Notes under the pieces: generated by a model
Told to the model about the DNA's origin: nothing
The model's database searches: none
What the model saw: the letters and a program-made list of their open reading frames with translations, nothing else
Source: an uncultured Nonlabens sp.
GTDB lineage: Bacteria > Bacteroidota > Bacteroidia > Flavobacteriales > Flavobacteriaceae
Reading direction: 5' to 3'
DNA: 64,000 nucleotides
NCBI RefSeq assembly: GCF_947495285.1
Contig: NZ_CANLXZ010000013.1
Coordinates: 29,741-93,740 of the forward strand
Shown here: piece after piece, positions 47,062-53,570 of the stretch
Layout of the letters: each line of letters begins with the position of its first letter
Numbering within the stretch: position 1 is the stretch's first letter
Program-made: the position numbers and the translations under genes

Positions 47062-47661
47062 ATGTCAGTTTTAGAAAAATATCTTCCTAAACTTGCCACG
47101 GCACCATTAACTGCGTTATTGCAGCAAAATCAGGTGCATCTTAAAATTGTAAATGAGCGCAAGACCAGACATGGAGATTATCGTAAAAACCCAGACGGTT
47201 CTCATGCAATAACCATAAATTCAAATCTTAATAAATACCGGTTTTTAATAACCCTAGTGCATGAAATAGCACACCTAGTGGCGTTTCAAAAATATGGTAG
47301 ACAGATAAAACCCCATGGAGTAGAGTGGAAACATACGTTTCAAAAACTCATGCTTCCCTTTTTAAGGCCAGACATTTTTCCCAAAGATTTACTGCCTGTA
47401 CTAGCACGACATTTTAAAAACCCTAAAGCGAGTAGCGATACAGATGCAATGATGAGTGTCGCCCTAAAATCATACGACCCAGAAAGTGATAAAAGCTATA
47501 TCTTTGAAATACAAGAAGGGACTACCTTTTTAGGACCTAGCGGTAGAAAATTCCAAAAAGGAAGTAAATTGCGTAAACGCTACCGTTGTGTAGAAATAAG
47601 TACTGGAAAAGTGTATCTTTTCCAACCTAACGCGCAAGTAGAAGTATTAAAAACAATATGA
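47062..47661 (+). CDS. SprT-like metalloprotease-domain protein
   Basis: HEIAH and PHGVEWK motifs. Confidence 0.87.
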   Translation: MSVLEKYLPKLATAPLTALLQQNQVHLKIVNERKTRHGDYRKNPDGSHAITINSNLNKYRFLITLVHEIAHLVAFQKYGRQIKPHGVEWKHTFQKLMLPFLRPDIFPKDLLPVLARHFKNPKASSDTDAMMSVALKSYDPESDKSYIFEIQEGTTFLGPSGRKFQKGSKLRKRYRCVEISTGKVYLFQPNAQVEVLKTI

Positions 47662-48737
47662 ATAACAACAACTACGCAGTAATTATGGCTGGCGGTGTTG
47701 GTTCTCGATTCTGGCCAGTAAGTAAGCAATCTTTTCCTAAACAATTTCACGATATGTTAGGAATAGGTAAGTCACTCTTACAGATGACCTTTGATCGATT
47801 AAAGCATCAAATTCCAGCACAGCACATACTAGTATTAACTAACCATGCCTATGTAGACCTAGTAAAGGAGCAATTGCCCGACATGAACTTTGACAACATA
47901 GTTGCAGAGCCTGCTATGCGCAATACCGCTCCATGTATTTTACTGGCTGCTTTAAAGATTCAGAAAATGAACGCGCAGGCCAGTATGATAGTTGCACCTA
48001 GCGATCATTACATTGCCCAAGAGGACATCTTTAACGAAGACCTTAATACTGCATTTGATTTCTGTAAATTACATCCAGACGCGTTAATGACCTTAGGAAT
48101 ACAACCTACGTTTCCTAATACTGGTTATGGATATATTGAATTTAATAAGGAGGAAAGTGAGGTAAAAAAGGTATCTCAATTTAGAGAAAAACCAGATCTT
48201 AAAACGGCTCAAGAATTTATCGCTGCAGGTAATTTTTTATGGAATGCAGGGATTTTTATTTGGAATGTAGATAGTGTCGTTTCCGCTTTCGCGAAAGCGC
48301 AACCACAATTAACCTCTTTATTTAAAAATGGATTATCTGTTTTAAATACCAACAATGAAACACAATGGCTAGAAGAAAATTATCCAAAAGCCGATAATAT
48401 TTCTGTCGATTATGCGATCATGGAAAAAAGTGAAGACGTGTATGTATTACCTGCACGTTTTTCATGGAATGATCTAGGTACATGGGGCTCGCTTTATGAA
48501 AAACTAGATAAAAATGATAAGCAAAGTGCTGTAGTAAATGCGTCTGTGACAGAGATAGATTCTAGTAAAAATATGATAAGAACGGCAGCTGGTAAGAAGG
48601 TAATCGTTCAAGGGCTAGAAAATTACATAGTAGTAGATCAAGACGATGTATTAATGATTATCCCTATGACTGAAGAGCAGGAAATCAAACAAATACGTAA
48701 TAAAGCCATGGAAAAATATGGCAATAATATAGGTTAA
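47658..48737 (+). CDS. manC: Mannose-1-phosphate guanylyltransferase
   Basis: MAGGVGSRFWP..PKQF, EPAMRNTAP, FREKP and WNDLGTW motifs. Confidence 0.93.
   Translation: MNNNNYAVIMAGGVGSRFWPVSKQSFPKQFHDMLGIGKSLLQMTFDRLKHQIPAQHILVLTNHAYVDLVKEQLPDMNFDNIVAEPAMRNTAPCILLAALKIQKMNAQASMIVAPSDHYIAQEDIFNEDLNTAFDFCKLHPDALMTLGIQPTFPNTGYGYIEFNKEESEVKKVSQFREKPDLKTAQEFIAAGNFLWNAGIFIWNVDSVVSAFAKAQPQLTSLFKNGLSVLNTNNETQWLEENYPKADNISVDYAIMEKSEDVYVLPARFSWNDLGTWGSLYEKLDKNDKQSAVVNASVTEIDSSKNMIRTAAGKKVIVQGLENYIVVDQDDVLMIIPMTEEQEIKQIRNKAMEKYGNNIG
48284..48299. repeat. 16-bp palindrome, exact, inside manC (AFAKA)
   Basis: Read directly. Confidence 0.97.
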
Positions 48738-50182
48738 TGGAAGAGCAGAATGTGAATAAAGTAGACGAGAATCTACTCGAGGATAACAAACAAAAGATAA
48801 CCGGTATATGGGAGAATATTATGGAGTTTTTACACAATCTTCTAGATATACGTGAGGACTCTGACCGTCATGAAACCATAGACTCTGTAAGAAAGGATAT
48901 CTCTTTTCAAGGACACAATGCCTGGATTTTGATATTTTCTATCATGGTGGCATCTATAGGTCTTAATGCAAATTCTACTGCCGTGGTAATAGGCGCCATG
49001 CTTATCTCTCCACTTATGGGACCTATAGTAGGTATGGGATTAGGTACGGCTATTAATGACAGTAATATGTTGCGTCGTTCTCTTACTAATCTAGGTGTTA
49101 TGGTAGGACTATCGCTTCTTACAGCGACCTTGTACTTTTTTATCTCTCCTATTAAAGAGGCAGAAAGTGAGATACTCGCGAGAACTGCGCCTAACATTCT
49201 AGATGTATTGGTCGCTATATTTGGTGGTCTAGCGCTTATAGTTGCTAAGGCAAAAAAAGGAACTATTTCTAACGCCATTGCAGGTGTAGCTATTGCGACA
49301 GCCTTAATGCCGCCGCTGTGTACGGCAGGTTTTGGTATTGCAAATGGAGAATGGGGATTCTTTGGTGGGGCGATGTACTTATTTTGTATCAACGCTGTAT
49401 TTATTGCACTTACTACCTATGTGGTCTGTAAATTATTGCAGTTTCCTATGGTGAAATATGCAAATGAGGCAAAAAGAAAACGTACCTCTCGTATAGCGGC
49501 TCTAGTAGGTTTTATAGTTTTAGCTCCTTCTATTTGGTTTTTTATACAATTGTATGAAAAGCAAAAATTCATCATTGATTCAAAGAAATTTGTTCAAGAA
49601 AATATGATTTATGAAGGTACTCGAGCAACACCAGAATGGGATCAAGAAAAGAAACAGCTAGATGTGACTATTATAGGTAAAGAAGTACCAGAGTCGTTAA
49701 TCAATGACTGGAAAGCAAGATTTGCAAAAATAGACGGTTTTGAAGATAGTAAAATAGAGATTTATCAAGGTAGCCGTACGATTTTAAATTCAGGAAATGA
49801 GAATTTTGAAAAACTGCAAGAAGAGCGTATCAACGATATAAAGCAATTGCAAAATAAAGACCAGCGCATTATCGCTTTACAAAATGAGTTGAATATTTTA
49901 AATAGTAAAACTCAAAAAATAGAGATGATAAGTGAAGAGGCAGCATTGATCTATCCGCAATTATCTAGTATAGCACATGCCCATGAGATTAAGAAAGATC
50001 TATTAACACAAACCTATGACACCACAGACGTGTTTACGGTAAGTTACAAAGATTCTACCCTAACCGGTAACGATACACAGACCATGAAAAAAAACATGGC
50101 AAACTGGCTTTCTTACCGCATGAAGCCCCACAAAATTAAAGTCAACGAGTCTTTTCCTGTAATAGAAAAAACAGCGAAGTAG
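48737..50182 (+). CDS. DUF389 / TIGR00341 membrane protein
   Basis: SIGLNANSTAVVIGAMLISPLMGP and GVAIATALMPP motifs. Confidence 0.87.
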   Translation: MEEQNVNKVDENLLEDNKQKITGIWENIMEFLHNLLDIREDSDRHETIDSVRKDISFQGHNAWILIFSIMVASIGLNANSTAVVIGAMLISPLMGPIVGMGLGTAINDSNMLRRSLTNLGVMVGLSLLTATLYFFISPIKEAESEILARTAPNILDVLVAIFGGLALIVAKAKKGTISNAIAGVAIATALMPPLCTAGFGIANGEWGFFGGAMYLFCINAVFIALTTYVVCKLLQFPMVKYANEAKRKRTSRIAALVGFIVLAPSIWFFIQLYEKQKFIIDSKKFVQENMIYEGTRATPEWDQEKKQLDVTIIGKEVPESLINDWKARFAKIDGFEDSKIEIYQGSRTILNSGNENFEKLQEERINDIKQLQNKDQRIIALQNELNILNSKTQKIEMISEEAALIYPQLSSIAHAHEIKKDLLTQTYDTTDVFTVSYKDSTLTGNDTQTMKKNMANWLSYRMKPHKIKVNESFPVIEKTAK

Positions 50183-50193
50183 TAGGTAGTTGG

Positions 50194-50250
50194 TAGAAGT
50201 AAAAAAAAGCTCTCAAGAACTTTATTCTAGAGAGCTTTTTTTTACTTCTA
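50194..50250. terminator. Long bidirectional terminator at the left edge of the R-M island
   Basis: TAGAAGT-A8-GCTCTC...GAGAGC-T8-ACTTCTA inverted repeat. Confidence 0.85.
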
Positions 50251-50251
50251 A

Positions 50252-50362
50252 TTAAAGATAATGAATTCCTTTTTCTGCTGTTTTAGCGGTGTAAAGCGAT
50301 ACAAATTCTTTGTTATGTATGGCATCTTTGTAGGATGCTGCAACTAAGTATTTAATAGTTAC
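50252..50362 (-). pseudogene. Possible orphan 3' fragment of a displaced gene
   Basis: Start-less open frame VTIKYLVAASYKDAIHNKEFVSLYTAKTAEKGIHYL* ending directly at the terminator. Confidence 0.3.
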
Positions 50363-50363
50363 T

Positions 50364-51140
50364 CTATGCTTTAATTTGAAAATTTAATTTAATGAAAGAA
50401 CCATGTTCATTCTTATAAACACTTCCATATCCCATTTTTGAGCCTGAAGGGTTGTCAAGTCTTGCAGAGTTTTTTAAATATTGTTTGAACTTATTAAAGT
50501 CTATTAAATGATAACAAAGCATTTCTGCATTTGGTTTAATAATAATAATACCTCCGACTATATCATATTTGCCAGACCATACTGCTTTTGAGGTCATTCC
50601 TAAAGCAGCTTCAACTAAAAAATTCACTAATCTATATTCGTAAAACTTATGACCTTGAGAAAGGTTATAATTCATAGGGTTATCTTCTCTAATTTTTTTA
50701 ATTACATCATTTATCTTAACTATACTGCTAATATACTTGTCTTTGACTATATGAGCTATTATCTCAGGTAAATCACTATCAATTACTTGAAGATTTAACT
50801 TAAAAGTATCGTCATCAAAAGAGTCAAAATTAACTTGGTAACCTAGTTCTGTTAATTTTGAAATTCGTTTTATATACTTATGGCCTTTCGTAATTGAGTT
50901 TACCTCAATTAAATCATCATCAGAAATAGGTTTACCATTATCATCAACTATTTTAAATGTAATGTTTGTTGTTTCGTTAAGTTTTAAAATTTTTGGATTA
51001 TTATCCAAAAAAGATTTTATACTTACTTCTTTTGAAATTATATGACCATCAGTTTTGTCATATTTCCTTATATGTGAGTAATTCTCATTTAAAGAGCGTT
51101 TGATGAAATATCCAGAATGTATATTATCAATTATATTCAT
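50364..51140 (-). CDS. HpaII-family restriction endonuclease-like protein, short N-terminus
   Basis: SIKS..., LQVIDSDLPEI, NPMNYNLS..H.FYEY, ALGM...W.G.YD..GG and CYH...KLNFQI match R.HpaII motifs as I recall them; about 100 N-terminal aa are missing. Confidence 0.78.
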   Translation of the reverse strand: MNIIDNIHSGYFIKRSLNENYSHIRKYDKTDGHIISKEVSIKSFLDNNPKILKLNETTNITFKIVDDNGKPISDDDLIEVNSITKGHKYIKRISKLTELGYQVNFDSFDDDTFKLNLQVIDSDLPEIIAHIVKDKYISSIVKINDVIKKIREDNPMNYNLSQGHKFYEYRLVNFLVEAALGMTSKAVWSGKYDIVGGIIIIKPNAEMLCYHLIDFNKFKQYLKNSARLDNPSGSKMGYGSVYKNEHGSFIKLNFQIKA

Positions 51141-51888
51141 TGTTTTTAAATTTGGAATAGTGGTCTTTTAAAAATTCTAAATTTGGAAGAAATTTTTCTG
51201 GAAGTTTAATCTTTTTATTTTTGTATTGAGTGAAATAGAAATCATTCTCTCCTTTTTCATAATCCAAAAGGTATTTAGAAACGGTGATTTTGTAATTCGT
51301 ATCAATACTTATTAATCCTTTATCAAAAGCCTTATCGTGAAGATTATTTAAGCAAAGACCATTTCTAGGGTTTGTTCTTTCAACGTTTTCACTCCAGGGA
51401 ATTATATGACTTGCAATTAGAAGCTCTGGAATTTTGATTCCAGTAATACAGCAAGTCAAATTATATGCCGATAAGACTGAACTTCTAAAAAAAGATTGAT
51501 TGACCCTTGTTTTCACTAATTTTAGTTTGTCTTTCCCAGTTGGAAAATTTTCTACTATAACTTCGTCTTCAATATTTTTACCTTGAAATTTAGATATAAT
51601 CTTTTCACTTTCGAAAGCTAAATCATCCCAATTTCCGTGAAATTCATTCCAAATAATTTCTTCTAACTGACTTCCGTTTACTAAACCTGTTATTCCTTTT
51701 TTCTTAAGTTCTGGGTCTAATCTACCTAAATTTCCAATCTTCATATTTAAGGCAGAAGGTGAACGCCCAATAATATTTGCATATTTAATTATAGTAGGAT
51801 TTGTTTTACTGCTATTTTTAAATGGTATTTTGCAATAAACGTTGAATGCAACTATAGTTTCTTCTCTTGACCAGTTTTTTCTTGACAT
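51127..51888 (-). CDS. HNH endonuclease (HNH_2, putative restriction endonuclease type)
   Basis: RVNQSFFRSSVLSAY..TCCITG, ASHIIPWS and NGLCLNNLHDKAFD motifs. Confidence 0.9.
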   Translation of the reverse strand: MSRKNWSREETIVAFNVYCKIPFKNSSKTNPTIIKYANIIGRSPSALNMKIGNLGRLDPELKKKGITGLVNGSQLEEIIWNEFHGNWDDLAFESEKIISKFQGKNIEDEVIVENFPTGKDKLKLVKTRVNQSFFRSSVLSAYNLTCCITGIKIPELLIASHIIPWSENVERTNPRNGLCLNNLHDKAFDKGLISIDTNYKITVSKYLLDYEKGENDFYFTQYKNKKIKLPEKFLPNLEFLKDHYSKFKNNEYN

Positions 51889-51890
51889 TC

Positions 51891-52772
51891 TTAAGATGCG
51901 TTAGTGATAGAAGTGGAAAGCCCACAGCGAGGCACGAGCGAGGACTTGAAACGGATAGCCCGACCCTTTAGGGTAACGCCCAAATCTTTTCGGAAACCAA
52001 CAATGAAAATCCGTTCACGATTTTGGGGAACGCCAAACTCTTTTGCATTTAGGATTTTAGGCTCAGGAATATAATAACCAAGATCTTCTCGAAGTACATT
52101 AAGTATGGTTTTTAAAGTTTTTCCTTTGTCATGATTTCTTAATCCCTTTACATTTTCTAGAAATACGGCTTTTGGTTTTTTATTTTTTATAATTTCAGCT
52201 ACATCGAAAAATAGTGTTCCGCGAGTATCTTCAAATCCTCCTCGTCTACCAGCAATGGAAAATGCTTGACAAGGAAAACCTGCACATAATACATCAAAAT
52301 CATCTGGAATGTAACTTTTTGTTTTAGCTTTAGTGATGTCACCAAATGGTATTTCTCCAAAGTTGACACGATACGTTTGTTTAGAGTATTTATCCCATTC
52401 ACTTGTAAATACACATTTACCTTGTAAATTTTGAAATGCTAATCTAAAACCACCAATACCAGCAAAAAGATCTATGAATTTAAATTTAGGCTTTATTGGA
52501 GCTGGAAAAGGAAGTGTCTTATCTGAATCGAAAATTAAATATTGAAGAGCCTCTTCGGCAACTTTGTTAGTTATTTTATTGGCTGGATATTCTTTAGATA
52601 ATTTTTCTTTAACAAATTCTACTGCGTCTCTTTTATAGAATTTAGACACGCCGTTTTTATGATTATGAATATAATGAGTAAAAGAAGCTGGTTTGGAATT
52701 TCCTTCTTCAATAATATTTACTTCAAAAAGCTGACCATCAATATTTTCTATATGTATACTTTCTTTTGACAT
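51891..52772 (-). pseudogene. C-terminally truncated C5-cytosine DNA methyltransferase (M.HpaII-like)
   Basis: Motifs I (FAGIGG), IV (GFPCQ), VI (ENV) and VIII (QNRERIF) are present. The TRD and motifs IX-X are absent and replaced by read-through of a GC-rich element. Confidence 0.88.
51898..51979. mobile_element. 82-bp GC-rich MITE/REP-like element at the methyltransferase breakpoint
   Basis: Terminal inverted repeats GCGTTA (51898-51903) / TAACGC (51974-51979); 46/82 = 56% GC in an AT-rich island; internal repeats GCGAGG x2 and AAAGCCC/ATAGCCC. Confidence 0.6.
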
Positions 52773-53130
52773 TTGTCTATCTGATTCTGTAAAGCAAGTT
52801 AAATAAGTTGTTTTTATAGAAGTACGTTTTTGATTTTTAATTGTTCACATTTTTAATTATATATTGAATGATGGTATATGTTTTTAACTAATTCGAGAAA
52901 GTAATATTATTCTAATGCATTTCAATTCATTCAATACCAAATGATTTCTAAGAACTATTACGATTAGTGAGATGTGAAATCTTGTATTACTATTGTAGTT
53001 TTATAACTTTTATTTGTCTATTCTGTTGAAATAACCTTGGATGATCATCTTAACTACGGAAGCACTGATGGAGATGAGATGTATAAAATTGAATTATGTA
53101 TTTAATACAGTGATTAAATATTATTTCTAT

Positions 53131-53394
53131 TTAAAGGTAACTTTCATCTGAAGAGTTTTCACCTATTTGCTTAGTGATAATTTCAATAGCCTCTTGTTTT
53201 CCTAAAATATTTCCAAACTCCAACAAGGAATCTGTATCACGATAAACACCGTTTCTATCATTCCATGATAACCAATCTATCAAGTCTAATCGTGTCCATA
53301 AATTTAATTCAGTTTTAAGCTCATTCTTATTGAGCTCCATTATTTTATAATTAGGATCTCTAAACTTTTGTTCTTCTTGAAACGTTGGATACAT
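53131..53394 (-). CDS. Small hypothetical protein (87 aa)
   Basis: Protein-like WTRLDLIDWLSWNDRNGVYRD core; ATG at 53394 is more plausible than the AT-rich track start at 53454. Confidence 0.55.
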   Translation of the reverse strand: MYPTFQEEQKFRDPNYKIMELNKNELKTELNLWTRLDLIDWLSWNDRNGVYRDTDSLLEFGNILGKQEAIEIITKQIGENSSDESYL

Positions 53395-53570
53395 AGTTAT
53401 GCGTTTTATTTTAATTAAAGATAATTGATTTGTGATTAAAAATCTAATAATCAATTATTTAAATTAAATGAAGTTTGAATATAAGATTAGATGAAAAACA
53501 GTTTACCTTTCTTTTAAAAATACGCAAATCAGAAATGTCATAATCAGACTTAAGCTTTCTAAAAGTTTTT

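Follow-up and report, generated by a model that had tools for sequence, protein, structure and literature searches.

Do three closely spaced genes in a flavobacterial genome form a defence system of a new kind, or are they the remains of an old one? The question is raised by a stretch of 64,000 nucleotides (hereafter the window) from the genome of an uncultured Nonlabens sp. (assembly GCF_947495285.1, contig NZ_CANLXZ010000013.1), in which positions 50364 to 52772 encode a protein related to C5-cytosine methyltransferases, an HNH nuclease and a short relative of the restriction enzyme R.HpaII. An earlier note on this DNA had read the group as an unusual defence triad. From the comparisons described here we conclude that the locus is probably a disarmed HpaII-type Type II restriction-modification (R-M) operon, in which the methyltransferase gene (M) preceded the restriction gene (R), and that it was invaded by a foreign cassette composed of a repeat and the HNH gene. 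A new three-part defence system is not supported. The three tightly packed open reading frames (ORFs) on the minus strand were recovered exactly where the earlier note had placed them, and the locus is made up of the following parts.

51891..52772, minus strand: truncated C5-cytosine methyltransferase ORF (M'), 293 aa (Pfam, NCBIfam, blastn)
51127..51888, minus strand: HNH_2 endonuclease gene, intact, 253 aa (Pfam, PADLOC, PDB profile, AlphaFold2 (AF2))
50364..51140, minus strand: chimeric HpaII-like ORF, 258 aa (Pfam, junction alignment, blastn)
51890..51985, plus strand: Flavo-1-type structured repeat, left end of the cassette (Rfam match at 51890-51969)
51032..51972, minus strand: 941-bp segment without DNA-level homology to the intact operon (blastn breakpoints against loci L007 and L006)

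M' and the HNH gene are separated by 2 nt, while the HNH gene and the HpaII-like ORF overlap by 14 nt.

The evidence that carries this conclusion comes from intact operons of the same type. In a blastn comparison with the intact M-R operon of Aquimarina (L007), DNA homology extends from 52773 to 51973, stops there, resumes within R at 51031 and continues to the R stop codon. Between these breakpoints, 941 bp stand in place of 871 bp of the intact operon, which correspond to M codons 268-420 and about the first 137 codons of R. The inserted segment contains a GC-rich repeat of about 90 nt, the HNH gene and 36 codons without homology to R at the DNA level, about 13 of which derive from the cassette and about 23 from R, the latter being too diverged for blastn. 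A contig of a Nonlabens metagenome-assembled genome (L006) likewise carries, without any HNH gene, an intact R preceded by the 3' end of M, which is cut at the contig end, and the housekeeping genes downstream are the same as in the window (73% identity to window positions 47063-49972). From the intact operon of L006 together with the shared flanking genes we conclude that the operon occupied this chromosomal site before it was broken; the site is polymorphic, being filled and decayed in the window and intact at the orthologous position in L006. The colinear order of M stub, repeat, HNH gene and short R was found again in the independent assemblies L063, L064 and L060/L061 at 77-81% DNA identity. 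Among the HpaII-family loci of species-representative genomes (n = 31), 19 carry a full-length R without HNH, 7 an HNH gene with a truncated R, and 5 are fragments; in 18 of the 19 loci with full-length R, it is preceded by a complete M of about 420 aa.

The left junction, between M codon ~267 and the repeat, is also found in L113, which has a different cassette and R subtype. At this junction M and the 5' end of the repeat share a microhomology of 10 out of 13 positions (M codons ~263-268), and this imperfect microhomology probably helped the deletion on the left side. The R remnant (50364-51031) is 86% identical at the DNA level to the intact R of L006 (L006:936-1602), compared to only 73% for the adjacent housekeeping genes, which indicates that R-M alleles were exchanged more recently than the species diverged. 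A trace of the former system may also be present in the genome as a whole, where CCGG, the specificity assigned to this R-M system on the basis of its family membership, shows the strongest depletion among all sixteen 4-bp palindromes (observed/expected ratio (O/E) 0.67), consistent with past activity of a CCGG-specific system. The next palindromes in this ranking are TCGA (O/E 0.78) and GGCC (0.80), and CTAG, unusually for a bacterium, occurs more often than expected (1.24).

How much of the two original genes is left? The earlier note had assigned the first gene to the C5 methyltransferases, and the family match stands (Pfam DNA_methylase, PF00145, E 2.9e-74), but the gene is not intact, since the match covers only profile positions 1-167 of 324, and that to NCBIfam dcm only positions 1-164 of 329. 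Codons 1-267 (51972-52772) are derived from M and encode an N-terminal extension and motifs I-VIII, with FAGIGG, PCQ (including the catalytic Cys), ENV and QNRER present in the translation; the last ~26 codons are readthrough of the GC-rich Flavo-1-like repeat up to the stop codon. The target recognition domain (TRD) and motifs IX and X are missing and M' is therefore predicted to be dead as a methyltransferase, unable to do its original methylation job. A C-terminal piece of an HpaII-type M that could complement it was not found elsewhere in the genome, and a search for a second source of CCGG methylation yielded as the only other C5 methyltransferase of the genome that of a separate system. 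This second, complete R-M system is located on contig C63 (locus L045:388-3136) and comprises, in the order C-M-R, a helix-turn-helix controller of 110 aa, a C5 methyltransferase of 452 aa and a restriction gene of 351 aa, which shows a PD...EVK motif and has no Pfam match.

The 258-aa ORF matches Pfam RE_HpaII (PF09561, E 2.8e-69, 234.6 bits) at positions 105-358 of 359 only, and PADLOC REase_II with E 1.4e-46. What the earlier note had said about its composition agrees with the alignment to full-length relatives: the N-terminal ~100 aa are absent, including the invariant residues N4, G6, E7, S9 and E10 (GEWSE), the KSDI-type site is replaced by SHI, and SIKS is kept together with the C-terminal half. 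More precisely, K120-G121-D122, which are invariant in 48 full-length relatives, read N-Y-S in the short protein, whereas S141 and K143 and the C-terminal 200 residues are retained. A detached N-terminal piece of R was not found in the genome, and the neighbouring M being a stub, no complete cognate C5 methyltransferase stands beside the ORF. The AF2 model of a full-length relative (predicted local distance difference test (pLDDT) 87) places in the missing part helix 1 and five strands, which precede the strands bearing D122 and K143. Since a Foldseek search with the HpaII-family model returned only insignificant matches to HinP1I (prob 0.18-0.28) and no relative of the family was found among PDB sequences, the catalytic residues could be assigned only from the invariant columns. 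By these losses, the short R is judged unable to do its original restriction job.

That such a fragment is still an open frame is explained by its junction. The ORF is an in-frame fusion, in which the first ~13 codons (51102-51140) belong to orf80 of the cassette and R follows from codon ~114 to its native stop, and it is because of this fusion in frame that it stays open. In the junction alignment with orf80 of L037 and the intact R of L007, the first 13 codons match the 5' end of orf80, and residues 14-36 can be recognized as R-derived by protein alignment only. In loci without any R, such as L037, orf80 follows the HNH gene with the identical 14-nt overlap. The overlap, in which the earlier note had seen a sign of translational coupling and of a genuine start, is therefore real but inherited from the HNH/small-ORF pair of the cassette.

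In contrast to its truncated neighbours, the HNH gene is intact. Its product matches Pfam HNH_2 (PF13391) with E 3.5e-14 and 52.8 bits against a cut-off of 21, and PADLOC PDLC04132 with E 6e-88; the nearest NCBIfam family for the HNH domain is a phosphorothioate-DNA restriction enzyme, and a PDB profile match, limited to the HNH domain, links it to VcaM4I (PDB 6yex, E 3.5e-19). The AF2 model (pLDDT 89) shows a confident beta-beta-alpha fold, for which VcaM4I and TagI are the only significant Foldseek matches, and the columns of the catalytic residues H161, N176, N181 and H184 are invariant in 39 HNH sequences. The N-terminal ~1-105 residues form a confident all-alpha domain, for which searches of Pfam, PDB sequences and Foldseek gave no match, neither to SRA or EVE nor to any other reader-like domain. 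With dN/dS values of 0.06-0.10 (ratio of nonsynonymous to synonymous substitution rates) relative to its homologs, the gene is under purifying selection. Its family is patchily distributed (16 of 401 genomes of the taxonomic family), and no other member was found in the source genome. The HNH protein is the only nuclease at the locus that is predicted to be intact. Its most likely role would be that of the cassette's own homing-type or mobility nuclease, an assignment that we make tentatively; that it is instead a cargo defence nuclease of the Type IV kind is somewhat less likely still.

Several small genes accompany members of the HNH family in other loci. Where R is absent, acidic ORFs of 79-112 aa with the pattern F-x-Y-x-Y...GN follow the HNH gene and overlap its stop codon (L052:3791-4105, L058:4837-5175, L037:4746-4985, L041:4753-4998); they have no Pfam or PADLOC match and may encode an accessory or immunity protein for the nuclease. 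Distinct from these is a conserved ORF of 68-70 aa, which precedes the HNH gene in L043, L003 and L081. Directly upstream of the HNH gene in L037 lies a ParD/ParE toxin-antitoxin pair (L037:3451-4985), and in L065 (L065:385-3623) and L067 a gene for a MutH/Sau3AI-type protein of 477 aa is found upstream; the settings in L037 and in L065/L067 look like defence islands.

The left boundary of the inserted segment is a repeat related to Flavo-1, an RNA motif described by Weinberg et al. 2010 (PMC2864571), to which no function has been assigned (PMC9723704). The window copy matches Rfam RF01705 over the full length of the model (1-76) with 29.1 bits, which is below the gathering score of 42 (E 0.0027), its homology to other copies reaches to 51985, and it is the single match in the whole genome. 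HNH-flanking copies elsewhere score above the threshold with 55-60 bits (59.7 in genome G092). Unlike the motif as known, the repeat delimits a gene cassette, here and in relatives: inverted pairs bracket a small ORF and the HNH gene in L047, L053 and L081, and in G092 the only two copies of the genome both flank HNH. The twelve HNH-linked copies compared have in common a closing stem and a central hairpin that varies, and 8 of their 20 predicted pairs show compensatory changes. From the Rfam match and the homologous copies we conclude that the GC-rich tail of M' is a Flavo-1-type repeat. The fold of this tail alone on the minus strand is no better than that of shuffled sequences (z +1.55), and its interpretation as a genome-wide repeat, a tRNA fragment or an attC-like hairpin was rejected, as it occurs once in the genome. 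In genomes with few Flavo-1 copies, the copy adjoining HNH is the sole one (G000) or one of two (G324), or, as in G092, both copies do so, whereas in high-copy genomes most copies lie away from HNH, which suggests that the arrival of the HNH cassette can seed a new genome with Flavo-1 repeats.

We compared the window locus with other HNH loci in a census of 107 (non-redundant); 93 of them were retrieved via the HNH protein, hence without bias towards intact R, and 91 could be assessed. A truncated HpaII-family R is present in 42 of these, an R beginning at or near its native start in 10, and no HpaII-family R nearby in 39. Thus, the linkage of the short HpaII form to HNH, which the earlier note had put forward for a check, is recurrent, and the lack of linkage that the note had named as refuting its reading was not observed. 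In every case the HNH gene is located upstream of R in the same orientation. By contrast, the truncations are not uniform: R starts are spread over residues 16 to 326 and the ends of M fragments over codons 41 to 414, and several R remnants are short stubs, frameshifted or devoid of a start codon. Most HNH-linked loci have no complete M, and for this reason we rejected the HNH protein as a classical Type II partner of M.

The least-decayed arrangement was found on two metagenome contigs (L080 and L081), with the order M codons 1-349, repeat, orf68, HNH gene, inverted repeat, an ORF of 53 aa and R. The 53-aa ORF begins at the native Met of motif IX and includes motif X, and its stop codon is overlapped by the start of a full-length HpaII-family R of 359 aa. 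Here, 1182 bp take the place of only 57 bp of M, which belong to the linker that joins the TRD to motif IX. The C5 methyltransferase is thus naturally split into ORFs of 385 aa and 53 aa with all motifs present (L081:1623-5092, also in L080), and may be a working two-piece enzyme. Two further lineages have the same right-hand junction, with HNH dS values of 0.7-1.1 between lineages, and in these the damage has progressed: R is frameshifted in L090, and the N-terminal part of M is cut at codon 292 in L076.

The cassettes are also found in R-M systems other than the HpaII type. In L055, M is split at motif IX beside an NgoFVII-type R, and in L053 an MvaI/BcnI-family R lacking ~31 N-terminal profile positions lies beside the HNH gene. 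L059, from another Flavobacteriaceae genome, carries a 40%-identical HNH cassette; its restriction gene is orthologous to that of the C-M-R system on contig C63 of the source genome, and a segment of 1033 bp with repeat and HNH replaces 735 bp, which comprise the 3' part of M together with R codons 1-27. Altogether, the apparent targets are C5 methyltransferase genes of five R-M families with differing insertion codons. In the sequences compared, members of the same cassette family occupy or abut C5 methyltransferase genes that belong to several R-M families and represent all stages of decay.

From these loci we infer that the cassette is mobile and enters methyltransferase genes. An ancestral HpaII-type M-R operon stood at the site, as it still does in a related Nonlabens, and the cassette would be a selfish mobile unit of about 1.1-1.2 kb, a complete copy of which consists of repeat, small ORF, HNH gene and inverted repeat. 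Its points of entry would be the C5 methyltransferase genes of R-M operons, and it would always be oriented like M; the primary insertion would lie between the TRD and motif IX, splitting M into two ORFs and leaving R at full length as in the least-decayed relatives, and subsequent deletions would take the rest of M and the head of R. One of the two possibilities raised by the earlier note, a disarmed Type II system with an intact orphan HNH, is upheld insofar as both M and R are truncated facing the HNH gene and intact relatives exist; the HNH gene itself, however, belongs to the cassette and is not an orphan of the system. A wider proposal can be made only tentatively, namely that Flavo-1 is the terminal repeat of mobile HNH cassettes of ~1.1-1.2 kb that are specialised in Type II C5 methyltransferase genes, first divide M into two pieces that still work and later set off the decay of the system. 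Such a cassette would be a dedicated R-M parasite and a recurrent route of disarming that leaves a solitary HNH gene behind. The cassette itself appears to be undescribed so far: a literature search for an HNH or Flavo-1 cassette in R-M genes found no description, which, given its incomplete coverage, is weak evidence of novelty.

Several observations weigh against this interpretation. In many loci the HNH gene is intact, solitary and under strong purifying selection, and this survival on its own is more readily explained by a nuclease that benefits the host than by a homing enzyme that is purely selfish. Many genomes, among them some without HNH, contain 2-34 dispersed copies of Flavo-1, and the repeats could be independent miniature inverted-repeat transposable elements rather than dedicated cassette ends. 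A pair of empty and filled sites with near-identical flanks was not found among the compared loci, and recent movement is thus unsupported; many of the R-linked loci may descend from a few old insertions that were spread by recombination. Finally, the short R frame is open in at least eight diverged copies with the same junction, although we give a residual role of this ORF little chance.

The alternative that survives best, while still unlikely, is that the HNH protein is a modification-dependent enzyme of Type IV that is incompatible with HpaII-type C5 methylation, so that only genomes with a broken M survive and the position of the gene reflects selection rather than targeting. The relationship of its HNH domain to the modification-dependent enzymes VcaM4I and TagI and to the NCBIfam phosphorothioate-DNA restriction enzyme is in line with this, as is the patchy and often solitary occurrence of the family, which resembles that of defence genes, and M is indeed broken in most HNH-linked loci. 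However, the all-alpha N-terminal domain offers no reader of modified bases that could be recognized. In L080/L081 the cassette coexists with a split M bearing all motifs and a full-length R, which implies that methylation is tolerated, and the source genome itself combines the HNH gene with another intact C5 methyltransferase system. Moreover, selection alone leaves unexplained why orientation is constant and why the gene lies in or after M in five R-M families.

A second alternative, which was the other possibility of the earlier note, is a two-subunit nuclease in which the dead C-terminal part of HpaII serves as the sequence-reading subunit of a cutting HNH protein, with an activity that would be independent of a methyltransferase and perhaps dependent on methylation. 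We consider it improbable. It draws support from the wide occurrence of HNH together with a truncated HpaII-family R (42 of the 91 loci), and from the frame being open, with its start overlapping the HNH stop codon, in many diverged copies. The dN/dS values of the short R are low as well, with 0.04 between the window and L063, 0.14 between L003 and L069 and 0.2 between L065 and L067, and in the comparison of L003 with L069 it has diverged in step with HNH (dS 0.89 and 0.87, respectively). In addition, the former catalytic region evolves faster (dN/dS 0.27-0.38) than the C-terminal 206 codons (0.04-0.06).

This apparent constraint, however, is shared by the dead M stub, for which dN/dS is as low as for the short R (0.05-0.09). 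Sliding-window comparisons revealed patches of 96-98% identity that are common to the window, L063 and the intact L006. In the short R of L063, the C-terminal part lies nearer to the intact R of L006 (dS 0.36) than to that of the window (dS 0.73); the part next to the cassette, by contrast, clusters with the window. In a tree of the C-terminal 205 residues of R, the short forms are scattered among full-length enzymes, with at least 10 changes between full and short on well-supported branches, and the window copy is 94% identical to a full-length enzyme. The R and M flanks are, as these patchworks indicate, recombination mosaics with functional alleles. Because the flanks are mosaic and the dead M stub is equally low, a low dN/dS is uninformative about the function of a stub, and on account of the M stub values, the shared patches and the changes in the tree we rejected dN/dS as proof that the short R is functional. 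Other evidence also speaks against a two-subunit enzyme: the truncation points are spread continuously over residues 16 to 326 with no domain boundary and several copies are broken, 39 of the 91 HNH loci have no HpaII-family R at all, and members of the same HNH family also adjoin truncated restriction genes that belong to unrelated families. The 14-nt overlap goes back to the HNH/orf80 pair, and the AF2 model of the full-length R makes independent folding of the remainder doubtful, as helix 1 and five strands are missing.

The weakest alternative, a one-off deletion or assembly mis-join without wider meaning, to which the fragmented state of the genome (a draft of 123 contigs) might point, is refuted by the independent copies of the arrangement in L063, L064 and L060/L061 and by dozens of variants elsewhere.

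How does the locus, read as an invaded and decayed operon, relate to known systems? With the HpaII Type IIP system it shares the order M then R and the families PF00145 and PF09561, and the parts that remain show 83-94% identity to the closest full-length relatives; it differs in the loss of the TRD and motifs IX and X from M and of residues 1 to ~113 and KGD from R, and in the 941 bp of foreign DNA between them. Free-standing HNH homing genes, such as mobE in nrdA of Aeromonas phage Aeh1 and the mob genes of T4, reportedly split host genes into what has been called 'genes in pieces'. The present case is similar in that a small HNH ORF sits in a conserved enzyme gene, that the two M pieces of L080/L081 together hold all motifs, and that the flanking sequence is mosaic, as co-conversion would predict. 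In contrast to these phage genes, the HNH protein is of the HNH_2 type, which is related to Type IV enzymes, the target is an R-M system on a bacterial chromosome, and the bounds are Flavo-1 repeats. VcaM4I (EVE-HNH) and TagI (SRA-HNH, PDB 6ghs) have a homologous HNH domain, but the window protein carries a helical N-terminus of ~105 residues instead of an EVE or SRA reader. In heterodimeric Type II enzymes such as BspD6I, with its large and small subunits, one subunit reads and the other cuts. The neighbouring, overlapping ORFs of the locus, of which one has a nuclease domain, recall this type, yet the window has neither a cognate methyltransferase nor a fixed boundary of a reading domain nor a consistent partnership.

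The surroundings of the three genes complete the picture of the locus, which is a low-GC island (GC 0.26-0.33 compared to 0.35-0.38 in the surroundings), and include one further feature.

50195..50264, strand not assigned: hairpin with T/A runs, probable bidirectional terminator (sequence reading)

This hairpin lies between the end of the R remnant and a convergent gene at 48737-50182 and probably closes the former operon as a bidirectional terminator; Rfam matches at this position are sub-threshold and spurious, reflecting only the hairpin type. Upstream of the M stub, an AT-rich stretch (52773-53570, GC ~0.26-0.29) is probably part of the same imported island, and contains an ORF of 107 aa (53131-53454) without Pfam or NCBIfam match.

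For the organism, these results amount to a correction of the annotation: the locus is predicted to be neither a working R-M system nor a three-gene defence module, with only the HNH protein likely to be active, and CCGG sites in this genome are expected to be unmethylated. For comparative work, they point to a practical trap, since gene fragments flanking a cassette can keep open frames and very low dN/dS values through recombination with intact alleles, and recombining fragments can thereby mimic functional 'short forms'. Beyond this genome, the census suggests that about half of the close relatives of the HNH gene are located within or next to HpaII-family R-M operons, which range through every stage of decay, and related cassettes are found in no fewer than four further R-M families. 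Should the cassette prove to be mobile and directed at methyltransferase genes, it would represent a genetic parasite, or a successor, of R-M systems of a new kind, it would provide the first functional context for Flavo-1, and it would have given rise to natural C5 methyltransferases that are split between the TRD and motif IX.

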